DNA of 64,000 nt, taken from Gemmatimonadota bacterium (GTDB lineage Bacteria; JAAXHH01). The notes under the pieces were generated by a model, which saw nothing but the letters and a program-made list of their open reading frames with translations, was not told the origin of the DNA and did not search any database. How positions within the stretch are numbered: the stretch's first letter is position 1; each line of letters opens with the position of its first letter. The stretch is from assembly GCA_009841265.1 (NCBI GenBank), contig VXMB01000009.1, positions 93,951 to 157,950 on the forward strand, written 5' to 3'. This document shows positions 1-12,474 of the stretch, piece after piece. The translations under genes and the position numbers were made by a program.

Positions 1-2279
1 AACTCTCCGAGCAGACCTTCGTAGTCGATGATGAATCCGTGCTCCTTCTCGATGCCGTCCTCCTCGAAGAGCCGGTTCACGCGCATGATCGCCTGCAGAA
101 GGTTGTGCTCTCGGATCGAGCGGCAGAGGTACAGCACCGTGTTCCGAGGTGCGTCGAAGCCGGTCAGGAGCTTTGAGACGACAATGAGGATCTCCGGATG
201 CTCCGAGTGCTTGAACGCGTCGATGATCTGACGGTTGTATTCGCCCTCCGTCCCGTACCGGTCCATCATGCGCTCCCAGAACGCGCCGACCACGCTCTTG
301 GAGTCGTGATCCACGTCCTCGTTGCCCTCGTGGTCGTCGGGAGGCGAGATGACGATCTCGCTAGTCACATGGCCGATCTCGTCGAGGATCTCCTTGTACC
401 GGCACGCAGCTGCCTTTGATGGTGCGACGAGTTGCGCCTTGAACCCACTGCCCTGCCAGTGTTGCCGGTAATGTTCGGAGATGTCGAACGCCCTGGCGTG
501 TATCGCCTGTTCGGTGCGTGCCAGCGCGTTCAAGCGGGAGTACTTCTGCTTCAGATCCGCCCGCTGTTGCTCGCTCAGGCCTTCGCTCAGTTTGTCGAAC
601 CAGGAGTCGATGGTTTCTGGGTTGATTTGCTGTTCGACGATCCTTCCTTCGTAAAGCAGGGAGACGACCGCCTCGTCCCGGACCGCTTGGTCGATCGCGT
701 ATCTGTGTATCAGTCCTCCGAAGGTGGTCAGGGTGTTCTTCTCCCTCTGCAGAAGAGGCGTTCCCGTGAAACCAAGGTAACAGGCCTTTCCAAGAATACG
801 TCGCATCTTGCCGGCCAACTGTCCGAACCCACCGTGCGATCCCGTCTGCGTACGGTGGCTTTCGTCTACCAGTACGAATACGTTGGGATCCTCATCGATC
901 ACCTGGCCGACGCGCGAAGCCGTGTCGAACTTGTTGATGATTGTCGTAACCAGCGGCGTCTTGTTCTGAATCAGGGAGATCAGGTGTGTGCCGGTCGTGG
1001 CCCGAACGGGTTCCATTTCGCACGACTTGAAGGTGTCCTTGATCTGCCGGTCTAGATCGTCACGGTCCGTAACAATGACAATGCGCGGGTTGGAGATCGT
1101 CTCTTCCAGGGCCAGCGCTTTGCCCAACATGACCATGGTAAGCGACTTACCGGTCCCGGGCGTGTGCCATATCACACCGCCCCTGCGGACATCCTGCAAA
1201 TCGAACTGCCTGACCCGTTCCACGGCTCTGCGCACGGCAAAGTACTGCTGGTGCCTGGCTATCTTACGTTCACCGCCATCGAACACGGTGAAACGCCGCA
1301 CAAGGTCCAGCAGGCGCTCGCGTCGGCACAGGGCGTAAAGCGCTTCGTCCTGCTCGGTGACCTGCCGTCCTTCTCCGGCGATAGCAGCCTCGTAGTGCGA
1401 CCGCGCAGAGGCGAGATTGCCCGAGTAGACCGCTTCGGCTTCGGCCACAGCCAGGGGTCGATCGACGAGATCTCGAAGGGGATCCCGGGGCGGATACTCC
1501 GCCTGTTCGTCCGGATCGAACACTACATCCGGTGGCAGTATTTCAGTATCCTCCAATTCGTTCTGCAGGGTAGCATGCGATCCCTCAACGGTAGTCTCCT
1601 CCTCCCGCCAGGTCTGCCAGAACCTACTCTGCGTGCCCACCGTCGCATAACGGGCCTCCCGTCGGTTCATGGACAACAGAAGCTGCGCGAAGTGGAACAG
1701 GTGTGGAATCTCGTCTTCTCTCTGGTATCCGATCAACTGGCTGTCGGCCTTCTTCAGACGCTCCGTCGGCCGCTTGTTCTCGATTACGATGAAGGGGATC
1801 CCGTTGACGAAGGCGACGATATCGCATCGGCGGGTCCTGGTACTGCTGGTCCGCTCCACCGTCATTTCAGCCGTCACGTGATAGGTGTTGTTGTCCGGAT
1901 TCTCCCAGTCGACGTAGCGGAAGGAATAGGATTTCGAATCGCCGTCGATGGTCTTGGTGATCGTCGTGCCGAGTACCAGCGTATCGTATACGTCCTGATT
2001 GGTTCCGCGCAGCCCCTTGAGCCGGTCCGGCGTCGGTTTCAGTCGTCGCATCGCCTCGTGGGCATCTTCGAGATTGAAGGGATACTCCTTGCCCCGGTGG
2101 GTAAAGCGGTTGAGCTTCAGAAGTTGATCAGCCAGTACGTCATCGAGCGTGACGTTGCGCAACCTGTCTCCGCGTAACCGCAACGCTTCTTCTGGAGAAA
2201 GTGGCGTAAAACCCATCGCAACCAGAAGATGCAGGGCCGGTATCTGGGACTGGTGTTTTTCAGTGGCGTCAAAGATCAT
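1..2279 (-). CDS. hsdR: Type I restriction enzyme R subunit HsdR, N-terminal ~760 aa; the C-terminus runs off the window start
   Basis: Reverse-strand translation from the ATG at 2279-2277 reads MIFDATEKHQSQIPALHLLVAMGFTPLSPEEA... Helicase motif I 'VIWHTPGTGKSLTMV' lies at ~1130-1180 and the DEAH box 'LVDESHRTQ' at ~840-900. The gene is absent from the ORF track because its stop codon is off-window. Confidence 0.9.
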   Translation of the reverse strand, partial: MIFDATEKHQSQIPALHLLVAMGFTPLSPEEALRLRGDRLRNVTLDDVLADQLLKLNRFTHRGKEYPFNLEDAHEAMRRLKPTPDRLKGLRGTNQDVYDTLVLGTTITKTIDGDSKSYSFRYVDWENPDNNTYHVTAEMTVERTSSTRTRRCDIVAFVNGIPFIVIENKRPTERLKKADSQLIGYQREDEIPHLFHFAQLLLSMNRREARYATVGTQSRFWQTWREEETTVEGSHATLQNELEDTEILPPDVVFDPDEQAEYPPRDPLRDLVDRPLAVAEAEAVYSGNLASARSHYEAAIAGEGRQVTEQDEALYALCRRERLLDLVRRFTVFDGGERKIARHQQYFAVRRAVERVRQFDLQDVRRGGVIWHTPGTGKSLTMVMLGKALALEETISNPRIVIVTDRDDLDRQIKDTFKSCEMEPVRATTGTHLISLIQNKTPLVTTIINKFDTASRVGQVIDEDPNVFVLVDESHRTQTGSHGGFGQLAGKMRRILGKACYLGFTGTPLLQREKNTLTTFGGLIHRYAIDQAVRDEAVVSLLYEGRIVEQQINPETIDSWFDKLSEGLSEQQRADLKQKYSRLNALARTEQAIHARAFDISEHYRQHWQGSGFKAQLVAPSKAAACRYKEILDEIGHVTSEIVISPPDDHEGNEDVDHDSKSVVGAFWERMMDRYGTEGEYNRQIIDAFKHSEHPEILIVVSKLLTGFDAPRNTVLYLCRSIREHNLLQAIMRVNRLFEEDGIEKEHGFIIDYEGLLGE

Positions 2280-2436
2280 GGGGGAGTCAACAGTTGGGGT
2301 GTCGTACGACCTACTAGCAGTTTGAAAACCGAGACAATCGGTTCTAAGTTCTTATGCTAGCATCGAGCTACTTGATATACAGAATATCGTGTGTAACCAT
2401 GGAAGGAATCCTGTCGTAGCAGCGACTATGAAAGAT

Positions 2437-2636
2437 CTACCGTCGCATGTGATCAGTCTTATAATCGTATCCTTCGTCCCATTCGAGTTTGCCGAACAGA
2501 TCAAGAATCCGTTTTTGCTCTCGACGTGTAATGAATTCCCGCAAGGCCTTTTCGAGAGTCGTGTCTTCGTCTGCCCACCACTGACGCGCATCGCCTGTTC
2601 GAGAAGATCGGGGTCTACTAATAGATATATCAACAT
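2437..2636 (-). pseudogene. Frameshifted remnant of a VapB-family (PF09957 / DUF2191-like) type II antitoxin, with no cognate vapC
   Basis: Reading frame A from the ATG at 2636 gives MLIYLLVDPDLLEQAMRVSGGQTKT. The +1 frame continues TTLEKALREFITRREQKRILDLFGKLEWDEGYDYKTDHMRR and stops at 2439-2437. Joined, the two pieces match the consensus of this antitoxin family (..DIDDELL.EAMRLTG.KTK.EAV.LALRELV.RR.Q..LLDL.GK..W.GDLD..R). A 1-nt deletion inside an Arg codon near ~2561 explains the frame change. Downstream there is only a 10-codon stub (MVTHDILYIK*) before hsdR. Confidence 0.6.
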
Positions 2637-2640
2637 ACCA

Positions 2641-5600
2641 CTATTCCTTGAAGAGATCGTTACTAGAACTGTCCGTACGCTCGCAGTTATAAAGGCCTGC
2701 TGGCGGTGTTTTCCATTTTCCTTTGGGTGGTTTGTCGCGAAAGTCTTGGCTTGGACGTTTTATCAGTTTTAGAGGATCGATTTCGGCAAATGCTATCGAA
2801 GCCTGCGGTTGTCCGTGCAGGTGGAATACTTCTCGCTCATAAGGTTTCTTGAACGGCATAAAGAAACTACTTCCGCCAAACTGACCGTTGTTTACCAGGA
2901 TAAATCCTTGGAACATGTGGTAATGAATCGCTTCAGCCATTCGGTCGAACGTGCCAACATCTTTGTTTAGCGCACAGATGATATAAAGGTCGCTTCTCGT
3001 ACGGAGATCCGCGGCAAGCGCTAGGTCGGTCGCATCGTAGCAGATTGAGGCTGTCAGACGAAGTGGTTGTTCTTCTTCGGCCTCTTTCTGCCAATGGTAG
3101 TTGATCAGCCATTGCGCAGGCCTAAATCCCACTGGTTTAGGATTTAGGTTACGTTCAGCCTCCGTAATATGTGCTTTTCCCTGTTCGATTCGTTTGATTT
3201 GGAGTCCATCTGATCTGCTCTTGTCAGGAATTAACCAGAGAGCACTGTTTATTATCGGAGAACCTGGATGTTGTTCTCTGTGGTGATAAACTTGACCTAA
3301 TAACACAATACACCGGTACTGCTGCACAAATGGCCGTAGATACGTATCTATATCTTGAGGATGAATGGAAAGTTCGGGGAACACAAGAAGGTTGATGCCC
3401 CTTTCATTAGGGCTGCTTATATGTGACTCGCGTACACGTAACTGTTGGTAGACACCTGCCATTATCGCAGATAGATGTTTCCGGCACTCGGACCGTATCT
3501 CATGCGCACAGAGTTCCGGTTTATCGCTGTGCAGGTTGTAATGTTCGAAACTGGGAACCACAGACTGAACGATCCCTATGCGGAGGGCGCGATCGCGTCT
3601 AATTTCATGGGGACGGTGTGGCAATGGTGCTGACTGTTCCAGAATCGTTGTGGATGTATACTGGCCCCTTTTTTTCCTGATGTGTTCCAGTTGGGATGAC
3701 ACTGTACTAAGTAGTTCGTGGACCGGGACGATATCGTGTCCCACCCCCGCCCCTGGCCAGCGCAACAGATCGAAGAGCAGATTCTCTGTGAACTGCGAGA
3801 TTGGTAGCCAATCTGGACCAAACGCATCTCGTCCTTGATAGCCGGCATATCTTTGCTGTTCCCAGTGCGAGACTGGCTTGGTATATCTCGGATAGCTTCT
3901 GCTGCGAGTTTTAGATATATTGAAAAGAAATTCGTTCGAACCTCGAAGAGCGTAACGAAGAAGGAGTCCTGTATTGAATCGTTGGCGATCTTCTGTGTTT
4001 ACACACCAATCGGGTGAATTGAAGAACGGAGTCATATATTCAATGATCGACTTATGTTCAATCGAATCATCTTCAATCTTACCGAATTCATAGCCTTTAG
4101 GTTTTGGATGCTTCAGAGAGAACCAAATACCGGCAGGAACTAACGGCTCAGCGAATATAGTCGAATCTTGACCGAGTAGGTATTCCGCCAGTAACAGGAG
4201 ATTCTCCTCCTCATGAAAAGGGTTTTCAGCATCGGGGGAGAGATCGGATAATGTCTGCTTCTTCGGAGATTCTCCATCAAGTGGGATTATAGACTGACCG
4301 TTGTTTTCAGACGGTTCGAGCCCAAGGTGAATGGCAAGTCGTCTAACATCTTTCCCTGATCCATGGCTGGCTGTTGTCCAGAGCTTCTTCGCGACCGAGG
4401 GTGAAATCGAATTCACTTTCAACAGATAATCTCGAGAAACCCGACTGGTAGACACAAGTTTATCAGGTTCTTGGATTCCAAATGCCGTGATAGTCTCTAC
4501 CAGGAATATCGAACGCTGCTCTAGGTCGTAGGAAACACTGCTGCGAATGAACTTGAGAAGTCTCCAATAGTCGCTTAGTAAGACTCCCCCTTTTCGGGTA
4601 TCTGTTGTGGGCACGGTCTCTGGAATTTGATTTCTTGTAGCGAGATAGAGAAATACCTGCTGCATTAAATACCAAGGAAATCGTGTACCGGACCTAGATT
4701 TCGTAATGAATGCAGAGACTATAGACTTTGCTTCTCTGACAAGCCTTTCATGGTATTTCTCAATGGAAACCTCGCTTGGCAGAGAATCAACTTCTACATC
4801 TGGGACCATACCGGTTTCCGTCGCTCCTACTCGAAAGAGTTCCGCAAGGCAATAAAGCATGATCTCCCGTCTCGACCCTCGAGTTTCTGGCGATTTCCAG
4901 CCTTGTCGGAGCAATTGTAGTACTTTATCCAAGAACTGGTGACTTGGATAGAAATCAAGAGCAATACGAAGTAAGCGTACATGCCCTGGATTCCTTATCC
5001 ACTCACCAATGAGTAGAGATGAAAAGGCTTTCCCCCTTTCATCCAATTGAGATTTCGTAAGTGCAAAGTTCGGGACAGATTCCGTGGTATCCTGGTCTTC
5101 ATCCATGGATTCAGGAATTTCCTCATCCGGTAAAAGCGGCCGCAGGGAGCGAAACGTGCGTCTCATCCTCCCGGCGGCGAAGCGCGCTACCGTTTCATCC
5201 GGCATGTCGGGAACCCCGTCCAGAGTTTCATCGAGTTTACCTATTTCCGAAGTAGCGTAGTGCTGCTGTCTGTAGAAGAAGCTTTCTATGGCACCGATTA
5301 ATTCGGTTCCGAGGGTTGCGTCAAATACACCGGAAGCCCGTTTCTGAATCCGCGCAGCTTCTTGCGATTGTTTAACGAGCAGACGATTTTCTCTGGTCTC
5401 GATTGTTGCGGTAGTCTTTTCATCGTCCGGAATTTCAAGACCGTGTGCCTCCGAAGAAAGAAGATCATTCATCGTCCTGATTACGTGTTGTCGTACATCT
5501 TCTTCGTTAATTGACAAACTCGTAGGAAAACTCATGACCAGTCGAAAATCGTCCACGTAGTAACAGATATCTTCCAGATACAATTGTTCCAATTCAGTTA

Positions 5601-6573
5601 CATCACCTAGTTTCTGTTGAACGAGTTTCTTTTTAAGTATTTGATCCAAATCGATAAGTGCGATGTTCGCGAAGAACCCACTGGCCACGAGTCCCTGCGG
5701 AAGAACCACCTCCATAAATCCATCATCGATGTCATTCGCTTCGGCATACCTTAGTGCTCTGTCTCGATCCGAGAAATGCCAGCGCCAATTCAAAACACGT
5801 TCAGCAAGATCGAAGAAAGAACTTTCATCCGATGATTCTTGAAACTCTCGTAGTTTTGGGTGCAACATTGAGGGACGCACCCGATCATAGAATTTCGATA
5901 AATCGGATTGAACTACCGCGACATCCAAGTCCTTGTTTTCACGCGACTTCAATTCGTTCTTTACGTGCCTTGGTCGCTCCAGAAACTTCCTATAGTCTTG
6001 GAAATAGCCGCGGTACAGTTTAGAACTTCCCCAGCGGTTCCTCAGGTTGGATTCCCCGACTTTATCGCAAAGTAGCCTGTGGCCGTACGCGAGGATCTTT
6101 TTTCGATTATTGCCCCTTGTCACGTCCAGACGGGGGTCACCAAGCCTAGTCTCAACTCGGTCCGCAAGGCAGAGCAAAATAGCAGTCGCCACAACCTGAT
6201 CTCCCAGATCAACGTGCGCAAGTGGACGGATGTAGTCCTTTTTCCTCTGATCCTTCTGACTCATAGGATTTGATTTTGACCTTATCTTCTTTACCCTTTC
6301 CGGTCTCCATCTTTCGTTCTCGTCGATCTCCCATCGTTGGTTCTTTGGAGCGGGTACGAACCTCAAGGGTCGAGGTTCCCACTGATCTGGCTTCTGCAGA
6401 CGAGCCTGTACTTCACCTAGGAACGAGGATACGCGCAATGATTGCATATCGATCCCAAGAGTATCGGCGTACCAGCTATGAGACCGCAGATAGGAAGATG
6501 TTTTCTTCCAAGCCTGCATCAGGACACATTCCATTCCGAGGTCCCTGAGGGTTGGTCTTAAAGTCTGTTGCAT
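2641..6573 (-). CDS. Defense-associated reverse transcriptase fused to a C-terminal nitrilase (C-N hydrolase) domain, 1310 aa; DRT type 1-like (UG1 class of UG/Abi RTs; UG5/UG6 cannot be excluded without alignment)
   Basis: The N-terminal ~420 aa carry ordered RT motifs: 'RPLRFVPAPK' (motif 1), 'IRPLAHVDLGDQVVATAILLCLADRVE' (motif 2), 'VVQSDLSKFYDRV' (motif A), 'VLPQGLVASGFFANIAL' (motif B') and 'CYYVDDFRLV' (catalytic YxDD). The middle ~550 aa are helical-repeat-like, with no catalytic motif. The C-terminal ~290 aa have the nitrilase Glu-Lys-Cys triad in context: 'LLVFPELSI', 'QGKAHITEAE', 'LTASICYDATD'. GC content (~45%) is clearly lower than the flanks. Confidence 0.85.
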   Translation of the reverse strand: MQQTLRPTLRDLGMECVLMQAWKKTSSYLRSHSWYADTLGIDMQSLRVSSFLGEVQARLQKPDQWEPRPLRFVPAPKNQRWEIDENERWRPERVKKIRSKSNPMSQKDQRKKDYIRPLAHVDLGDQVVATAILLCLADRVETRLGDPRLDVTRGNNRKKILAYGHRLLCDKVGESNLRNRWGSSKLYRGYFQDYRKFLERPRHVKNELKSRENKDLDVAVVQSDLSKFYDRVRPSMLHPKLREFQESSDESSFFDLAERVLNWRWHFSDRDRALRYAEANDIDDGFMEVVLPQGLVASGFFANIALIDLDQILKKKLVQQKLGDVTELEQLYLEDICYYVDDFRLVMSFPTSLSINEEDVRQHVIRTMNDLLSSEAHGLEIPDDEKTTATIETRENRLLVKQSQEAARIQKRASGVFDATLGTELIGAIESFFYRQQHYATSEIGKLDETLDGVPDMPDETVARFAAGRMRRTFRSLRPLLPDEEIPESMDEDQDTTESVPNFALTKSQLDERGKAFSSLLIGEWIRNPGHVRLLRIALDFYPSHQFLDKVLQLLRQGWKSPETRGSRREIMLYCLAELFRVGATETGMVPDVEVDSLPSEVSIEKYHERLVREAKSIVSAFITKSRSGTRFPWYLMQQVFLYLATRNQIPETVPTTDTRKGGVLLSDYWRLLKFIRSSVSYDLEQRSIFLVETITAFGIQEPDKLVSTSRVSRDYLLKVNSISPSVAKKLWTTASHGSGKDVRRLAIHLGLEPSENNGQSIIPLDGESPKKQTLSDLSPDAENPFHEEENLLLLAEYLLGQDSTIFAEPLVPAGIWFSLKHPKPKGYEFGKIEDDSIEHKSIIEYMTPFFNSPDWCVNTEDRQRFNTGLLLRYALRGSNEFLFNISKTRSRSYPRYTKPVSHWEQQRYAGYQGRDAFGPDWLPISQFTENLLFDLLRWPGAGVGHDIVPVHELLSTVSSQLEHIRKKRGQYTSTTILEQSAPLPHRPHEIRRDRALRIGIVQSVVPSFEHYNLHSDKPELCAHEIRSECRKHLSAIMAGVYQQLRVRESHISSPNERGINLLVFPELSIHPQDIDTYLRPFVQQYRCIVLLGQVYHHREQHPGSPIINSALWLIPDKSRSDGLQIKRIEQGKAHITEAERNLNPKPVGFRPAQWLINYHWQKEAEEEQPLRLTASICYDATDLALAADLRTRSDLYIICALNKDVGTFDRMAEAIHYHMFQGFILVNNGQFGGSSFFMPFKKPYEREVFHLHGQPQASIAFAEIDPLKLIKRPSQDFRDKPPKGKWKTPPAGLYNCERTDSSSNDLFKE

Positions 6574-6956
6574 GCCACTTGCCCTTAAAGGTGCGCTAGC
6601 GACTAGAATGGTTTAGCACTCTCAATTGGCTTATTGTGTTTTATCCCTTAGGACCGAATTGAGATCAGCTTGCCTATGTCACAATAACCGCTGAATACGG
6701 CTTTCTAAATTCCGATCGATTGCGCTGAGAAAGACGGTAGTGTTTTGCCGTGGTTTCTAAGCAACCAGTCTGTCGGCTTTCCACGGTCAAATCGCTATAT
6801 TGCCTCCTTAAGGTAATAACTTCGTAACAGCGGATATTTGATGTAATATCGAACTATTACTTTCCAATCTGCTGGTACGATAGGACATTCGTTGACATAG
6901 ATCGACTGGTACCGCACCCGTTTAAAAACGAATCAAGAATTGAGATTGCGTTCGCA
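6574..6956 (-). promoter_or_regulatory. 383-bp AT-rich non-coding leader upstream of the RT-nitrilase; a candidate promoter and/or structured ncRNA
   Basis: No ORF of 60 aa or more on either strand. It contains a perfect Shine-Dalgarno 'TAAGGAGG' (minus strand, ~6800) that is not followed by an ATG (only a TTG 12 nt downstream, opening a 44-codon frame). It also has 'ggtaccag' direct repeats and several short inverted repeats. Several other DRT types place a template ncRNA 5' of the RT. Confidence 0.3.
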
Positions 6957-7298
6957 CTACCACCTAAGTCGCTTACTATATGTATATCGCGATGGCTCAA
7001 ATTTACCATAATGCGCGAACTCGATCATTCTGACACATCCAAATACGATTTCGTGCAAGAATTCCACACTTACCAAGGGCATCTTAAAACTTCGTTGTTC
7101 TTCGATTAGGAAGTATCTCCAGTCGAACGAACCAATGTAATCATCACCTATCTTGTTTGGGTCGCCATCCAGATTTGTAAGGAAGTCCTGCAAAGTCTTA
7201 AACGGAAACGTCTTCCCCACAAATGCCTTGTAATCGGAATAGTACTCACGCAACGTTTCTTTGTCTTCCGATTCGAACAAATCGAACAGGATAGTCAA
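6957..7298 (-). CDS. Hypothetical protein, 113 aa with a TTG start; probably the C-terminal part of a ~204-aa protein whose frame is split from the upstream ORF
   Basis: Low-GC ORF reading MTILFDLFESEDKETLREYYSDYKAF... Its frame stays open upstream (WQKKVPRKHS) through the A8 tract. The TTG start at 7298-7296 overlaps the stop of the upstream ORF by 2 nt. No recognizable motif. Confidence 0.5.
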   Translation of the reverse strand: MTILFDLFESEDKETLREYYSDYKAFVGKTFPFKTLQDFLTNLDGDPNKIGDDYIGSFDWRYFLIEEQRSFKMPLVSVEFLHEIVFGCVRMIEFAHYGKFEPSRYTYSKRLRW

Positions 7299-7570
7299 CG
7301 AGTGTTTACGTGGTACTTTTTTTTGCCACGTACATACAAAAGTGCCTTGAACGACTCTTCAACGAGGAAATAACCAGCGACAACGTAACCCCAAGCCTGC
7401 GCCACCTCATGACTAGGTAGTAAATCAGGAGTCACAGGGCATTTCTTGTACTTTTCTTGCTCTTTCTCCAAAGCTGTATCTAACCCAGTCATCATCCAGA
7501 TCGGATCTTTGAAGCCTACAATCTGTTTTGTTGCCACGATAGAACTCCCTTTATCGTTCGTACCCATCAT
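7295..7570 (-). CDS. Hypothetical protein, 91 aa; probably the N-terminal part of the same ~204-aa protein
   Basis: Starts 6 nt after the hsdS stop (7577), so it is probably co-transcribed with hsdM-hsdS. Ends ...ALLYVRGKKKYHVNTR*, passing in frame through the A8 run. No recognizable motif. Confidence 0.5.
   Translation of the reverse strand: MMGTNDKGSSIVATKQIVGFKDPIWMMTGLDTALEKEQEKYKKCPVTPDLLPSHEVAQAWGYVVAGYFLVEESFKALLYVRGKKKYHVNTR
7316..7322 (-). other. A_AAA_AAG heptamer (dnaX-type -1 frameshift slippery motif) inside an A8 homopolymer, at the junction of the two small ORFs
   Basis: Minus strand reads ggc-aaa-aaa-aag-tac in the zero frame of the 91-aa ORF. A -1 slip (or one extra A) continues directly into the 113-aa ORF frame: ...VRGKKK|VPRKHSLTILFDLFE... 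Confidence 0.5.
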
Positions 7571-7576
7571 CCATCA

Positions 7577-8767
7577 TTACCTGCTATTGTTCCCATTTAG
7601 CAATATCTGAATTAGTCCGCGTTTTTGATTCTTCAGAGCACGTACCTCTTTATCCACACACTTAATTTCATCCTTAAAAGCGTCGAGTAAGTCAGCCTGC
7701 TTTTCCTGAAGTTTAATAGGTGGCAAGAAGATTCTGATTTTCGAAAATGCGGGGAATTTCAAATTCCATGTATCACTCGTTAGGCCCTGTGAATACCGTT
7801 GGAAATCGAATACCATTCGACGGGCTTTAAACAGATGGGAAGCATAGCGTGCTATAATCTTACTCTGATCGGGTGTGACGACAGTATAAGCAGGGCTGAC
7901 GATTCCACGAAGTGCTGAAAGACCTGATACTCCCTGCCACATTCGCATAGTGTTATATCCGAGATCACCCCGCAAAATCAGTTTGTACCGTGACTTATCT
8001 TTGGTAGAAGTGTCTTTCCGGTCGACCTCGTTACGGTCAATAACTCCTTCAGACATAGTGATGCTTAATAACGTATCCCAACTATTACCTGTTTGAATGC
8101 GCTCACGGAACAGATCACCCAACTCTACCTCAAGCCAAGTTCTAGGGTGCCCCGGAGAGGAAGGATGGCAGGGATCAAAAAAACCTTGGCTGACTAATCT
8201 GTATTGTACTGTCTTGGCCTGCCTCAATGCCTCCAACTTCTCAGTCGCCTCATCCCACGTTCGCAGTATTTCCCCAATCTTACGTTGCTCGGAAACTGGC
8301 GGTAGAAACACCGAGACCCTGGCGAGCTCCGCCTCGTGGATGTGAACAACAGAGTGCCCCTTGCCCAACCTCGACTTCTGCCTGACCGCGTCATCCGCAT
8401 TCAGCGCATGGGCCAGGAAGGTCGGATCTTGTCCATGTCCGCGTAGGATAATCGTATCTCCTCCTGCAACCGCGGTACCATTCCCCAACCATGCGACGGA
8501 CTTGCCGATTTCCCCGGCGGTTTCTCCCGAAGACGCGAAGATGATGTCGCCGTGGTGCAACTGCGTCGCTCTTCTTGCCGTATCCTCGGATACGAACGAG
8601 GTAAGTTCGTCGGTCACGTCGCCGTAGGTCGTGTAGAGATCGCCGTACCTCAGACAGGGAATTCCAGATTGAACCAGATCAGCTCTGGTTATGCCGCGTC
8701 CCTTGATGAACTTGCCCAGGTCTGACAGGCAAATCCTACCTTCTCGATGTATTGGAACCTTTTCCAT
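7577..8767 (-). CDS. hsdS: Type I R-M specificity subunit HsdS, 396 aa, two target-recognition domains
   Basis: MEKVPIHREGRICLSDLGKFIKG... (target-recognition domain 1); central conserved 'VFLPPVSEQRKIGEIL...LEALRQ'; C-terminal 'IFLPPIKLQEKQADLL...LKNQKRGLIQILL'. The 3' half is low-GC. Confidence 0.85.
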   Translation of the reverse strand: MEKVPIHREGRICLSDLGKFIKGRGITRADLVQSGIPCLRYGDLYTTYGDVTDELTSFVSEDTARRATQLHHGDIIFASSGETAGEIGKSVAWLGNGTAVAGGDTIILRGHGQDPTFLAHALNADDAVRQKSRLGKGHSVVHIHEAELARVSVFLPPVSEQRKIGEILRTWDEATEKLEALRQAKTVQYRLVSQGFFDPCHPSSPGHPRTWLEVELGDLFRERIQTGNSWDTLLSITMSEGVIDRNEVDRKDTSTKDKSRYKLILRGDLGYNTMRMWQGVSGLSALRGIVSPAYTVVTPDQSKIIARYASHLFKARRMVFDFQRYSQGLTSDTWNLKFPAFSKIRIFLPPIKLQEKQADLLDAFKDEIKCVDKEVRALKNQKRGLIQILLNGNNSR

Positions 8768-8878
8768 ATTCGACCTTAAGTTTCCCTTCGATTTGCGCTG
8801 TCAGGTAATCCTTTACATCTGCCTCGATCCGAACTTGTAAGCATCTCCGACCGAGTTGCTCATTCGGTTACTTCGCCC

Positions 8879-10396
8879 TCAGACCTCAACACCAAGCTCC
8901 TTGAGATATTGCTTCATCCGCTTGCGCACTTCGACCAGTTCGGCTTCGATCTGGTCGATCTCCTTCTGGACAGCGGCTACGTCGATCTCTTCCTCCGGCT
9001 CGAAGGTATCGACGTAGCGGGGGATATTGAGATTAAAATCGTTTTCGACAATTTCCTCCGGACTGGCCACGTGGGCATATTTCTCGGTTTCGGTCCGCGT
9101 CCGGAACGTCTCCAAGACCCTTTCGAGATGTCCTTCATCCATGACGTTCTGCGTCTTGCCCGGGATGAATTCCTTGCTGGCGTCTATGAACAGCACGTCC
9201 TTCCGGTCTTTGTTTTTTCCGCCCTCCTCACGCGACCGGTCGAAGACCAGGATGGCCACGGGAATGCCCGTCGTGGTGAAGAGGTTCGCGGGCAGGCTGA
9301 CCACGGCGTCGAGCAGGTTTCCTTCGATCAGCGCCCGGCGGATCCGGCCTTCGGCGCCGCCCCGGAACAGCACGCCGTGCGGAACGATCACTGTGACACG
9401 GCCGCTGCCCCGCTTGGCGATCTCGATCATGTGCGTGATGAAGCCGAAGTCAGCCTTCGACTTGGGCGGCACGCCGCGCCAGTACCGGGCGAAGGGATCG
9501 TTCGGCGCATTCTCCGCACCCCATTTGTCCAGCGAGAAGGGGGGATTGGCCACCACTACGTCGAACTTCATCAGGTGATCTCCCTCGACGAGGGCCGGGC
9601 TGTTGAGCGTGTCGCACCATTCGATGCGCGCGGCGTCCTTCTCGTGCAGGAACATGTTCATCCGTGCCAGGGCCCAGGTCGCCCCGTTGACTTCCTGACC
9701 GAAGAGGGCGTAGTTGCCCGAATCGACTTCGTTGGCTGCGCGGATCAGCAGCGAACCAGAACCGCAGGCCGGGTCGCATATCGTGTTGCCGGGTTTCGGG
9801 GCAGCAAGACCGGCGAGCAGCCGGGATATAGCGGCCGGCGTGTAGAATTCGCCGGCCTTCTTGCCGGCGTCTGAAGCGAAGCGCGATATGAGGTAGAGGT
9901 AACACTCCCCTATTACGTCTTCGGACACCTTCGACGGGCGCAGATCGAGAGCCGGATTGGCGAAATCCTCGAGGAGGTTGACGAGGCGCCGATTACGGTC
10001 CTTCACCTGACCGAGGTTGGCTTCCGAGTTGAAGTCGATGTTGCGGAAAACGCCTTCGAGCTTCGAACGATTCGCGTCCTCGATCTTCTCCAGGGCGATG
10101 TTAATCAACTCGCCGATATTCGCTTCTCCGCGCCGTTCATACAAATCGTAGAAACTTGCGCCGTCGGGCAGGACGAAACGCTCGCGTTCCAGTCTGCGAC
10201 GGATCCTAACCTCGTCGTCCCCGTATCGCTGGCGGTAGCTTTCCACATGGTCGTTCCACAGGTCCGAGATGTACTTGAGGAACAGCGTCACGAGGATGTA
10301 GTCCTTGTATTGACCGGCATCGACGACGCCCCGAAAGGTGTCACAGGCGGCCCAGGCGGTCTGGTTGACCCGCTGCTGCATGGTCTGGTTTGTCAT
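8879..10396 (-). CDS. hsdM: Type I R-M N6-adenine DNA methyltransferase subunit HsdM, 505 aa
   Basis: N6_Mtase motifs: 'ICDPACGSGSLLIRA' (AdoMet binding, motif I) and 'VVANPPFSLDKW' (motif IV, NPPF). HsdM-like N-terminus 'ILVTLFLKYISD'. Confidence 0.9.
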   Translation of the reverse strand: MTNQTMQQRVNQTAWAACDTFRGVVDAGQYKDYILVTLFLKYISDLWNDHVESYRQRYGDDEVRIRRRLERERFVLPDGASFYDLYERRGEANIGELINIALEKIEDANRSKLEGVFRNIDFNSEANLGQVKDRNRRLVNLLEDFANPALDLRPSKVSEDVIGECYLYLISRFASDAGKKAGEFYTPAAISRLLAGLAAPKPGNTICDPACGSGSLLIRAANEVDSGNYALFGQEVNGATWALARMNMFLHEKDAARIEWCDTLNSPALVEGDHLMKFDVVVANPPFSLDKWGAENAPNDPFARYWRGVPPKSKADFGFITHMIEIAKRGSGRVTVIVPHGVLFRGGAEGRIRRALIEGNLLDAVVSLPANLFTTTGIPVAILVFDRSREEGGKNKDRKDVLFIDASKEFIPGKTQNVMDEGHLERVLETFRTRTETEKYAHVASPEEIVENDFNLNIPRYVDTFEPEEEIDVAAVQKEIDQIEAELVEVRKRMKQYLKELGVEV

Positions 10397-10401
10397 TTTT
10401 T

Positions 10402-11088
10402 CTACCTTTCCTCAATCAAGCCTGATTCGTTATCTGCTATCTGATCTCCAATACATCCTTTGAGAAGCAATCGGTTTAAGTCTCTTCGCCTGTCCGCAGC
10501 GAGTACGGTCAACGCGTGTTCGCGTTCTGCCAGACCGTCCAGGGTCGTAATCTTGCGTTGCAATTCAAGCGAAGGGATTTTGATTTCCAGACTCTCGACG
10601 CTGGACCGCGACACCATGCGTATGGTCGTCTTCAAAGCGACACGATCGAAGTATCGCTGGGATGGGGTTAGGTTGATGATCCATGCAAGGTATTCGGGTT
10701 GGATGAGGTCTGTTATAGGGCGCAAGACGTAAAGCGGTAACACGGCCACGGCCCTTTCGGTGAATCGTCCATCGAGCGCTACAGCTATATTCCTATCACC
10801 CCTGGATCGAAACAGCACGTCGCCTTGACCGACTAAGAATCTGTCCGTTTGACCTTTGAATTCGACACGGGTCAATCTTGCGGGCGCTATCTTGCCGTTT
10901 TGCGGAAAGTCGCCCAGTTGTATTGCCAGCGAACCGCTATGTGTTGCAGGTTGAAGGCGGCCACGGGCTGTGTACCCGCTATGGACGGAACAAATATCGC
11001 CAACGCGCTTATGTAATAAATGATATTTCATGAATACAGAATGTATATACCGGAGTTGATTTGTCAATAAAAAATCGTAGTTGGTCAA
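10402..11088 (-). CDS. Half-size HsdS-like specificity protein (one target-recognition domain plus one conserved coiled region), 228 aa. The true start is probably the internal ATG at 11030 (MKYHLLHKRVGDI...).
   Basis: 'VGDICSVHSGYT' is an N-terminal motif typical of target-recognition domains. The conserved 'IKIPSLELQRKITTLDGL...' parallels the 'LPPxxEQxKI' repeats of the full hsdS. It ends 5 nt before the hsdM start. Confidence 0.65.
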   Translation of the reverse strand: MTNYDFLLTNQLRYIHSVFMKYHLLHKRVGDICSVHSGYTARGRLQPATHSGSLAIQLGDFPQNGKIAPARLTRVEFKGQTDRFLVGQGDVLFRSRGDRNIAVALDGRFTERAVAVLPLYVLRPITDLIQPEYLAWIINLTPSQRYFDRVALKTTIRMVSRSSVESLEIKIPSLELQRKITTLDGLAEREHALTVLAADRRRDLNRLLLKGCIGDQIADNESGLIEER

Positions 11089-11352
11089 TTATAGAGATTA
11101 ATATACTGTGTTTCTTGTCTGAGGCAAGGAGAAAAGGAGATTGGAGATCGTTTAAGAGGTCGGAAGGGAACTCGAAGGTAATGAATCGTGCTTACGTAGA
11201 GGTAATTTGGGTATCTACGGCCTCATATCAGAAAAACCGCAATTAGTTTCTGGAACGTGCTGTGTTTATCTAAAATGTACATGAACCTGTATTGTGAATA
11301 TCGGGATGATAACCGATAACACGTCGGTTCCTTGACGGTCGTTGGTGCGTCT
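11089..11352 (-). promoter_or_regulatory. AT-rich boundary and likely promoter region of the R-M/defense operon; a minus-strand TATAAT lies at 11149-11154
   Basis: A sharp GC drop between the PhyH-family gene's stop (11353) and the hsdS-half start. Minus strand reads '...ctctataattgaccaactacgattttttattgacaaatc...'. Confidence 0.3.
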
Positions 11353-12474
11353 CTAGTAGCTGTCAACGCCACGCACCTCATCGGACCAGTCCCGCCAGAT
11401 GTCAATATTCGTGGGGTCCGTCATGAGCGGATCCGGGAGGGATTCCGGCGTTTTGAGGAAGCCGTAGATGGTCGCCTGGCGGATGAGGTCGGCCGACGTA
11501 TTCTGCCCGGCGATGTGCAGGATCTTGGTGTGCCACAGGACCGCCGTGCCGGCTGGACCGTGACAATCGACGGGCCGGGTATCCCGCTTGATGCGCTGGA
11601 TGACGGGATCGTTGTAGCCGGGTTTGCGTCCCGCCAGGTGTTCGTCCATATGCTTTGCGCCTTCGAGAAAGGCCTGCCACTGCGCGCGCCAGATCCGGCT
11701 GTGGCTTCCCGGCCAAACCGTGAAGCCGCCGGAGTCGGGCGGCAGGTCGTCGACATAGGCGGTCACCTGAAACCGGACGCGTCCGTAGCAGGCGCCGTCC
11801 GTATGGGCGCCGCGGTAGTCCGGACCAGGAGACGGGCTGCCCGGCAGGGTGCAGTACAGGCCACGCGTCCCTTGCCCGGTGGACCACACCGGACCCGTCC
11901 TGGGCAGAAGCAGCGCTTCTTCCGTGGTGAAGGATCCCTTCTCGGGCCATCGCCCGGTCTCTTCGATCCCGTGGGTGGCCAGCCCGCCCACCATGTCGTC
12001 GGACATGAAGCACGGCCCCGTCGTCATGCCGGAGTCATCCACTCCGGCGGGCCAGACCACTGTGCCCTTTCCCAGCAATTGCTCGGCCACCTGCCAAAGA
12101 GCCCGGGGGGCCAGGTCGAGCATGAAGGGCTCAGCGCCGTTGCGGACATAGAAGCGGTGGCCTTCGGTGAAGAAATAGGGGTCGCCGCCGATCTCGGGCC
12201 GCTTCGCATTAAGTTGACCGCTTACTTCGTCGTTGAAAGGCGCCCAGGTGGTGGGATCGCCGCGTTTCATAGCGGGGTGGTGTGTCTCCACTGCGTCCCA
12301 CAGTGCTTCCCTGGCCTGGCGGCATAGTTCAAGGTCGAGCACGGCGGGCAGCACGAGGAAACCGTCGCGCTTGAAGCGGGCGATCTGGCTCGTGGTCAGG
12401 AGCGGGACTTGATTTAAGCCCGGTTCGGCTGGCGTTGGTCGCATTGGTTTTTTACCTCCATCTACTTCCGTCAT
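11353..12474 (-). CDS. Phytanoyl-CoA dioxygenase (PhyH) family Fe(II)/2-oxoglutarate oxygenase, 373 aa
   Basis: N-terminal 'TSQIARFKRDGFLVLPAVL'; metal-binding 'GAHTDG' and a distal His in 'VLWHTKILHIAG'. Confidence 0.7.
   Translation of the reverse strand: MTEVDGGKKPMRPTPAEPGLNQVPLLTTSQIARFKRDGFLVLPAVLDLELCRQAREALWDAVETHHPAMKRGDPTTWAPFNDEVSGQLNAKRPEIGGDPYFFTEGHRFYVRNGAEPFMLDLAPRALWQVAEQLLGKGTVVWPAGVDDSGMTTGPCFMSDDMVGGLATHGIEETGRWPEKGSFTTEEALLLPRTGPVWSTGQGTRGLYCTLPGSPSPGPDYRGAHTDGACYGRVRFQVTAYVDDLPPDSGGFTVWPGSHSRIWRAQWQAFLEGAKHMDEHLAGRKPGYNDPVIQRIKRDTRPVDCHGPAGTAVLWHTKILHIAGQNTSADLIRQATIYGFLKTPESLPDPLMTDPTNIDIWRDWSDEVRGVDSY

Follow-up and report, generated by a model that had tools for sequence, protein, structure and literature searches.

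What is a gene for a defence-associated reverse transcriptase (RT) doing in the middle of a Type I restriction-modification (R-M) operon, and is it a tenant there or a partner? The question is raised by a 64,000-nucleotide (nt) stretch of Gemmatimonadota bacterium DNA (assembly GCA_009841265.1, contig VXMB01000009.1, positions 93,951 to 157,950), called the window below, near the start of which a DRT type 1 gene, drt1a, lies between hsdS and hsdR. Coordinates are window positions unless they are prefixed by a locus label, L001 being the source contig, a metagenome scaffold of 310 kb, and the other L numbers compared loci. The answer that we favour, with a probability of about 0.6, is that two mechanistically independent defence layers, inherited together and probably co-transcribed, share one operon. 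This reading is supported by the fact that DRT1 suffices for defence as a single gene (PMC13275509) and that embedding in Type I R-M operons is established.

All the genes concerned lie on the minus strand, in the transcription order S-like gene, hsdM, hsdS, two small open reading frames (ORFs), a 383-nt gap, drt1a, a vapB-like stretch of about 200 nt, and hsdR. An initial annotation had proposed this gene set and its co-orientation, with coordinates that prove exact or only a few bases off, and the two gaps that it gave are correct, with 5 nt separating the S-like gene from hsdM and 6 nt separating hsdS from the ORF that follows. Its description of the cargo as compositionally foreign holds as well: the GC content is 0.43–0.48 from 2280 to about 8170, against 0.59–0.60 in hsdR and hsdM and 0.63 in the rest of the window, and the GC content at third codon positions (GC3) is 0.47 in drt1a, against 0.75–0.78 in hsdR, hsdM and the PhyH gene of the window.

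DRT type 1 is the UG1 RT–nitrilase, the structure of which is available (9yfd; Gao et al. 2020; Neville et al., NSMB 2026, PMC13275509). It confers abortive infection as a single gene and makes template-free, protein-primed DNA adducts from Ser402, with no RNA template. These adducts drive a dormant filament, the nitrilase being the effector, and both D324/D325 of the YxDD motif and C1116 of the Glu-Lys-Cys triad are required for defence (PMC13275509). The window gene (2641–6573, minus strand) encodes an RT–nitrilase fusion of 1310 amino acids (aa) with the same full-length two-enzyme architecture. It matches the PADLOC Drt1a model PDLC03745 with 1066 bits, residues 4–1294 covering positions 5–1176 of the 1176 in the profile. 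The match to 9yfd, deposited as Defense-associated reverse transcriptase 1, reaches E=5.9e-102 with the single sequence and 2.2e-160 with a 19-sequence profile, and Pfam RVT_1 is matched with 30.3 bits (cut-off 29.6). The RT motif YVDD at residues 339–342 aligns to RYVDDIRLV of 9yfd, the nitrilase stretches FPELSIHP (E1067), QGKAHIT (K1133) and SICYDATD (C1178) align to the reference triad, and these catalytic residues are all invariant in 19 homologues; the C-terminal WK.PPAG motif is likewise shared with the reference. What had been called a DRT1-like RT can thus be named more firmly, with RT and nitrilase in one polypeptide, a full-length profile match and the catalytic residues kept. The gene appears complete and intact: its ORF of 3.9 kb is uninterrupted, and all columns that are invariant in the 19 homologues are kept. 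Compared with its relatives, its ratio of non-synonymous to synonymous divergence (dN/dS) is about 0.17–0.23 (dN 0.064–0.105, dS 0.32–0.61), which indicates purifying selection.

The accessory membrane protein Drt1b is found in only about 18% of DRT1 loci (PMC13275509), so that its absence here, as in most loci, is compatible with DRT1 membership: no ORF neighbouring drt1a matches Drt1b or any other PADLOC model that could make it a small partner. By analogy with class 2 DRT systems, a non-coding RNA was considered for the 383-nt gap upstream of drt1a (6574–6956). It was rejected, since Rfam gives no match at E<=1, part of the gap is a gene relic described below, and the characterised DRT1 makes its DNA with no RNA template.

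The Type I R-M system around drt1a also appears complete, judging from the sequences of the S-like gene, hsdM, hsdS, hsdR and a YgjP-like gene. hsdR (1–2279, minus strand, ATG at 2277–2279) encodes the restriction subunit and has 759 codons inside the window, the rest lying past the left edge; on L001 it is a complete open gene of 1110 aa, with the YgjP-like gene following it. Its window part carries the Pfam domains HSDR_N, SWI2_SNF2, T1R_D3-like and ResIII, and the remainder on L001 carries T1RH-like_C, with scores of 420 bits for TIGR00348 (cut-off 285) and 541 bits for PADLOC REase_I. hsdM (8879–10396, minus strand, 505 aa) encodes the N6-adenine methyltransferase subunit and matches Pfam HsdM_N and N6_Mtase (1.7e-97) as well as TIGR00497 (281 bits, cut-off 243). 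hsdS (7577–8767, minus strand, 396 aa) encodes a full-length specificity subunit with two target recognition domains (TRDs), recognized by PADLOC Specificity_I over residues 14–392 (4.7e-59) and by two Pfam Methylase_S stretches; the half encoding TRD2 has a low GC content of 0.44, and the subunit is 80% identical to that of the L004 locus. The features of a Type I system are therefore present in one operon, namely an HsdR with its PD-(D/E)xK N-terminal nuclease, SF2 translocase and C-terminal domains, an HsdM and a two-TRD HsdS. A methylation-associated defence system (MADS) was rejected as an alternative assignment, the matches to mad2, mad3 and mad5 being far weaker than those to the Type I models.

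Directly upstream of hsdM lies the single-TRD S-like gene (10402–11031, minus strand, 209 aa from its ATG, or 228 aa from a TTG at 11088), which PADLOC Specificity_I matches down to 1.5e-14 and Pfam Methylase_S only below its cut-off. It had been taken for half of an hsdS. A truncated duplicate of hsdS can be discarded, because the identity to TRD1 of the operon's own hsdS is 26% over 114 aa and because a gene of about 200 aa stands in the same place in almost all relatives (L004–L030, L053–L057; 25–69% identity). The S-like gene is thus a conserved component of this hsd family, across which the true hsdS is hypervariable (21–80% identity). Its product could act as a homodimer that recognizes a second, palindromic target, or its role may lie outside specificity.

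Transcription most likely runs from upstream of the S-like gene through drt1a into hsdR. Read-through into hsdR is suggested by the co-orientation of the genes, the tiny gaps between them, the lack of a predicted terminator between drt1a and hsdR, and the short distances, about 9–75 nt, from Drt1a to hsdR in more distant relatives. A consensus scan of the gene strand between drt1a and hsdR found no terminator-like site. The sole gene-strand matches to a sigma-70-like promoter from 2000 to 11500 lie at 11020–11127 (minus strand), upstream of the S-like gene, and are a candidate operon promoter; the number of promoter-like matches in the same range is below the shuffle expectation, and as evidence they are weak.

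In Type I systems, HsdM2S methylates the host's own sites, while HsdR2M2S translocates along unmodified incoming DNA and cuts it. By family knowledge, the first layer of the proposed arrangement would consist of this protection of host sites by methylation, together with the cutting of unmodified incoming DNA. In the second layer, if the analogy with the characterised DRT1 holds, Drt1a would extend DNA, without a template, from a priming serine of its own in a disordered loop, and the resulting adducts would hold it as dormant tetramers or filaments. Infection would then lead to release of the Drt1a nitrilase domain and the infection would be aborted.

The place occupied by drt1a can be compared across the hsd family. 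A scan of species-representative genomes with the HsdR query gave 49 loci, onto which the window proteins were then mapped. The common architecture is S-like gene, hsdM, a slot, hsdS, another slot, hsdR and ygjP. The slot between hsdS and hsdR is empty, with a gap of 30–375 nt, in L009, L014, L018, L020, L022, L023 and L025. Elsewhere it holds Shedu SduA (L005, L017), an FRG-domain protein (L007), Ser/Thr kinases (L008, L012), a KwaB-like protein reminiscent of Kiwa (L013), a DUF4917/AbiH-like protein (L017), DUF6119 (L026) or a Gabija-like pair formed by an OLD-TOPRIM ATPase and a UvrD helicase (L028). In the closest relative, L004 (HsdR 94.5% and PhyH 92% identical, hsdR dS 0.27), there is no Drt1a, and the slot is taken up by a Schlafen-STAND protein, an ORF of 264 aa and an IS630 transposase. 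At the nucleotide level, the homology of the window to L004 stops at 7605, in the final 30 nt of hsdS, and starts again at 2282, which is 3 nt ahead of the hsdR ATG. These variable slot contents, and the replacement of the cargo in L004 between exact gene-boundary breakpoints, confirm the earlier idea that the hsdS–hsdR gap is a site where defence genes are swapped. Seen from the R-M side, Drt1a is a rare occupant, present only in L015 among the 49 loci found with the HsdR query.

Two other points of the operon vary in content. The slot between hsdM and hsdS, which is empty in the window (111 nt), measures about 1 kb in many relatives (including L005, L007, L009 and L011–L013) and holds a RhuM-family gene in L053 (5695–6720) and a RhuM-like fragment in L057 (3087–3827). 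At the 5' edge of the operon, an AbiEi/AbiEii pair lies between PhyH and the S-like gene in L004 (1293–2788), and AbiEii genes are also found upstream in L053.

A different picture emerges when the comparison starts from Drt1a. All five homologues at least 81% identical to it whose context is readable lie in the same order: hsdS, a variable gene, Drt1a, VapB, hsdR and a YgjP-like gene. The identities are 87% in L053, 84% in L054, 83% in L057, 83% in L015 (frameshifted; annotated as Latescibacterota) and 81% in L055. Both chromosomal flanks are common to the window and L055, and the downstream flank is also found in L053, L015 and L004. The variable gene ahead of Drt1a encodes an AAA_15 ATPase in L053 and L055, and a STAND-HEAT protein of 1512–1515 aa in L054, L057 and L015. 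The homologous block extends from the Drt1a ATG (from an ATPase relic in the case of L053) to the end of vapB at 2459, whereas the 175-nt spacer from there to hsdR is not conserved.

Synonymous divergence separates the histories of these modules. For Drt1a, dS between the window and L053, L054, L057 and L055 is 0.32, 0.37, 0.46 and 0.61, respectively, and since it is thus 0.3–0.6, the five related loci are not assemblies of one population. For the backbone genes (Cys/Met enzyme, creatininase, PhyH), dS between the window and L055 is 0.42–0.50; from this similarity the Drt1a block would be about as old as the divergence of the genomes. For hsdR, hsdM and ygjP, dS is 0.34–0.55 against L053 and reaches 1.08–2.1 against L054, L055 and L057. 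By this measure the hsd alleles around Drt1a are older than the backbone, which is expected for R-M loci that are kept polymorphic and exchanged by recombination. It had been reasoned at first that relatives with the same gene order at native GC would speak for an ancient arrangement. The same order is indeed found; native GC is not, the GC3 of Drt1a being 0.47–0.49 in all six lineages (window, L015, L053–L057), against 0.74–0.88 in hsd and backbone genes. No sign of amelioration of Drt1a is seen, despite a dS of up to 0.6 between its lineages. In the simplest history, the common ancestor would already have had Drt1a–vapB at this locus; L004 would have lost it by replacement, and the gene next to it on the upstream side would have been exchanged two times or more. 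Drt1a–vapB would thus be an old foreign resident of a slot whose upstream gene was swapped repeatedly: in the window, the ATPase upstream of Drt1a would have given way to a gene of putative HEPN fold, which has since been broken, and in the closest relative, L004, the whole cargo would have been replaced.

Several points weigh against two independent and functional layers. While the RT and nitrilase domains align with the reference DRT1 (9yfd), the alignment is weak in the central region and fails in the priming loop: the reference loop (about residues 377–472) was unalignable with the window clade by phmmer and hmmsearch against the PDB, so that the reference priming serine S402 is unmapped. 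The equivalent loop of the window clade has two invariant serines, S403 and S414, of which S414 would by its spacing be the better candidate for the priming residue. The vapB and HEPN-fold genes are both frameshifted, which points either to decay of parts of the island or to indel errors in metagenome assembly. An E. coli-type consensus underlies the scans for promoters and terminators, although the genome is that of an uncultured and probably non-proteobacterial organism. Finally, in 20 of 26 loci of its clade, and across two hsd families that are only 26–31% identical in HsdR, Drt1a has hsdR as its next gene. Passive linkage does not obviously predict such positional conservation, which leaves room for functional coupling.

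This last observation comes from a wider search for Drt1a, which has at least 1775 homologues at E<=1e-20. A metagenome scan with the single Drt1a protein gave nothing, and a profile-based scan gave 80 further Drt1a loci at 34–57% identity, in which the presence of hsdR was scored by tblastn with HsdR queries from two families. Among Drt1a proteins at least 50% identical to that of the window, hsdR lies downstream on the same strand in 20 loci, is missing from this place in 6 and cannot be scored in 1 uninformative locus; below 50% identity the corresponding numbers are 1, 33 and 26. The position directly ahead of hsdR is thus found in 20/26 informative loci above this limit and in 1/34 below it (Fisher p ~1e-9, uncorrected for kinship, some loci such as L065/L128 and L069/L070 being near-duplicates). 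The hsdR-linked loci group together as a single clade when joined in a neighbour-joining tree, with a few losses. The distance between Drt1a and hsdR, taken from the ends of the tblastn matches, is 9–73 nt in 13 of the 20 linked loci, which have no vapB. hsdM is found in most linked loci where the contig reaches far enough, and ygjP lies downstream in several. The HsdR of the more distant linked loci is the one that is only 26–31% identical to that of the window, and the position is therefore kept across two Type I families.

Such a pattern invites comparison with the anticodon nuclease PrrC, embedded in the EcoprrI Type IC R-M locus (PMC12707154) and, according to the embedding survey (bioRxiv 10.1101/2024.01.29.577857), found almost exclusively embedded. 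One could imagine this DRT1 lineage as a similar guardian, wired to the restriction enzyme and aborting infection when restriction fails, although we regard this as unlikely. Drt1a might be kept latent by the HsdR/HsdMS complex, might sense the inhibition of this complex by anti-restriction proteins of a phage, or might sense the DNA products of the complex. What speaks for it is the adjacency itself, mostly within tens of nt and kept in spite of the exchange of the hsd family, together with the fact that the slot is promiscuous from the R-M side and near-obligate from the side of the DRT1 clade, as with PrrC. Like PrrC, Drt1a is an abortive-infection effector within a Type I R-M operon beside hsdR, and its lineage is embedded far more often than free. 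However, PrrC is an ABC-ATPase/HEPN-like tRNA nuclease for which a link to EcoprrI and to the T4 Stp peptide, both physical and regulatory, has been demonstrated, whereas the likeness of Drt1a to it is one of genomic position.

Other evidence argues against such wiring. Six members of the clade, including the 61%-identical L056, are located elsewhere without hsdR. In the subclade of the window, vapB and a variable spacer part Drt1a from hsdR, and tight translational coupling is thus not required. No C-terminal feature specific to the clade was found to track the adjacency to hsdR, since the WK.PPAG motif is also present in stand-alone DRT1, and the characterised DRT1 functions without any R-M system (PMC13275509). 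In addition, the loci are phylogenetically non-independent.

Quite improbable, in our view, is that the island is decaying, with the cargo as an inert passenger and Drt1a, the R-M system or both non-functional despite their open reading frames. The broken genes on which this possibility is based are found on both sides of drt1a. The two small ORFs between hsdS and drt1a (6957–7298 and 7295–7570, minus strand), listed as unknown in the initial annotation, are real as ORFs but belong to one frameshifted and C-terminally truncated gene of putative HEPN fold (6957–7570). The frameshift lies in a T8 run at 7317–7324 (plus strand), inside the conserved R...H motif, and one A added to the A8 run of the gene strand fuses the two ORFs into a 204-aa protein. 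The repaired protein has 394 database homologues at 60–77% identity over about 95% of the length. Most of them measure about 287 aa, the window copy being without their C-terminal beta-rich domain of about 85 aa; its closest relative, P0001, ends at exactly the same residue and is also without the beta domain. The frameshift, being in a homopolymer, could reflect phase variation, a pseudogene or an assembly error. The assignment to the HEPN fold is tentative, with a Pfam HEPN match at only E=0.029 and an R...H motif spacing of 7 residues, against R-x(4-6)-H in the canonical motif, and searches of Pfam, NCBIfam, PADLOC and PHROGs gave no significant model for the family. Some members of the family lie in defence islands, P0001 beside a CD-NTase/Cap15 pair of a cyclic oligonucleotide-based anti-phage signalling system (CBASS) and P0034 near another Type I system. 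The family is large and highly conserved and is spread over Bryobacterales, Gemmatimonadota and other metagenome-assembled genomes (homologues P0001–P0120; L002:10001–10582, next to CBASS; L003:10001–10840).

Between the HEPN-fold gene and drt1a, the last ~47 codons of an ATPase gene, with two in-frame stops, are recognizable at 6690–6830 (minus strand) as a remnant of about 140 nt. The relic was detected by tblastn with the L055 and L053 ATPases (E=7e-9 and 6e-7) and by a blastn match of 145 nt at 72% to the end of the ATPase gene of L055 (its 3' end). Its parent is the 638-aa AriA/OLD-like AAA_15 ATPase that stands immediately upstream of Drt1a in L055 and L053. The 380-bp leader that had been noted corresponds thus to a real gap of 383 nt, but not to a dedicated leader, part of it being this decayed 3' end.

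Downstream of drt1a, vapB (2440–2636, minus strand) was correctly called a remnant. Its repaired translation matches PF09957 VapB_antitoxin (E=1.1e-7), and a DNA alignment of six loci shows a single 1-nt gap in the window copy only, a deletion near 2564 outside any long homopolymer. The gene is intact in the five related loci (L015, L053, L054, L055, L057; 51–84 aa), and no vapC is found in the window or in these five relatives. It is an antitoxin gene without its partner, and in the window it has become a pseudogene. The idea that VapB is a general accessory of DRT1 was rejected, since none of the 80 more distant Drt1a loci has it; in those of them that are linked to hsdR and were inspected, hsdR begins within about 10–75 nt of the Drt1a stop, too close for a vapB to fit. 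To these broken genes can be added the frameshifted Drt1a of L015. On the other side stand the long open frame of the window Drt1a, with all its invariant columns and a dN/dS of about 0.17–0.23, and hsdR, hsdM and hsdS, all full length and above curated cut-offs.

The least tenable explanation is the recent and single insertion of low-GC DNA into the hsd operon, possibly polar and uncoupling hsdR from its promoter, as the initial annotation had it: the low GC content and the lack of the cargo in L004, the closest hsdR relative, would fit, but it is largely refuted by the presence of the Drt1a–vapB–hsdR junction in five other loci, one of them sharing both chromosomal flanks, by a Drt1a dS as large as that of the window–L055 backbone, by an hsdR that is still a full-length open gene, by the absence of insertion scars or repeats, and by the simpler history in which an ancestral block was replaced in L004. 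Around the cargo, the search for flanking direct or inverted repeats gave only matches of chance size, and with no integrase or transposase in the window's cargo either, a transposon-like or integrase-mediated insertion was rejected. A composite island of R-M and RT genes is thus borne out in its outline, as a hot spot with foreign cargo, but the arrangement is old and shared.

The spacer between vapB and hsdR (2280–2439, minus strand; GC 0.45) is variable and has no homology to those of the relatives; in blastn with the five relatives, homology ends at 2459 and resumes at 2283. It may hold the decayed start of a vapC. A repeat of about 60 nt, translating as 'KQKGP*KLRTPDVDREKPNP', occurs in one or two copies in the corresponding spacers of L053 (14090–14447), L055 (14081–14352) and L015 (9708–10001), and is missing from that of the window; it is possibly a REP-like (repetitive extragenic palindromic) or MITE-like (miniature inverted-repeat transposable element) element. 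On L001, outside the window on its left side and shortly after hsdR–ygjP, the opposite strand carries two large AAA_16/TPR STAND-like genes (L001:19009–23584), which are also conserved in L055, L015 and L053. The island of defence genes probably reaches past the operon. One of these genes (AAA_16-TPR, L001:19009–22302) has a GC3 of 0.51, resembling the pattern of Drt1a.

How does this island compare with what has been described? Defence genes embedded in Type I R-M, bacteriophage exclusion (BREX) and Hma operons have been reported under the heading of 'guilt by embedding' by Payne et al. 2024 (bioRxiv 10.1101/2024.01.29.577857), and TgvAB is embedded in a Type I R-M system of Vibrio cholerae pathogenicity island 2 (VPI-2; PMC11411939). 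As in these cases, the window has an independent defence module between hsdS/M and hsdR of an active-looking Type I system, in a slot whose content varies. The embedding reports deal with GmrSD-like, ATPase, HEPN and other modules and with a single DRT type III, whereas the cargo here is a DRT1 with the relics of two earlier occupants. In published work on UG RTs, operonisation of an RT with Type I R-M served as a signature of defence function; this criterion was mentioned as one applied manually, to UG groups with poor sampling, in contrast to the clade-wide habit of a UG1/DRT1 lineage seen here. In contrast to the characterised stand-alone DRT1 gene, those of the window lineage are nearly always embedded immediately 5' of hsdR. 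In the DRT1 paper, the UG/Abi survey and the embedded-genes preprint, a coverage of the literature that is incomplete, no mention was found of a DRT1 lineage with this habitual place.

A DRT1 in the defence slot ahead of hsdR is thus a real but largely expected layered-immunity island, apart from the lineage-wide adjacency to hsdR. That one DRT1 branch is almost always found right before hsdR is a clade-level pattern that we have not found described. Should this lineage be a dedicated Type I partner, an RT analogue of PrrC whose dormant, DNA-adducted filament is controlled by HsdR/HsdMS or monitors it, which seems doubtful at present, this would explain why its place 5' of hsdR is kept across two unrelated hsd families, and would give DRT1 a defined cellular sensor input, for which we found no counterpart in published work. 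The putative HEPN-fold family is in its turn a candidate defence gene without a profile in the libraries searched. The relics within this operon, with the contrasts in dS and GC3, also provide a dated case of turnover in a defence hot spot, in which separate histories have been followed at one and the same site by the hsd genes, by the Drt1a–vapB block and by the gene ahead of that block.

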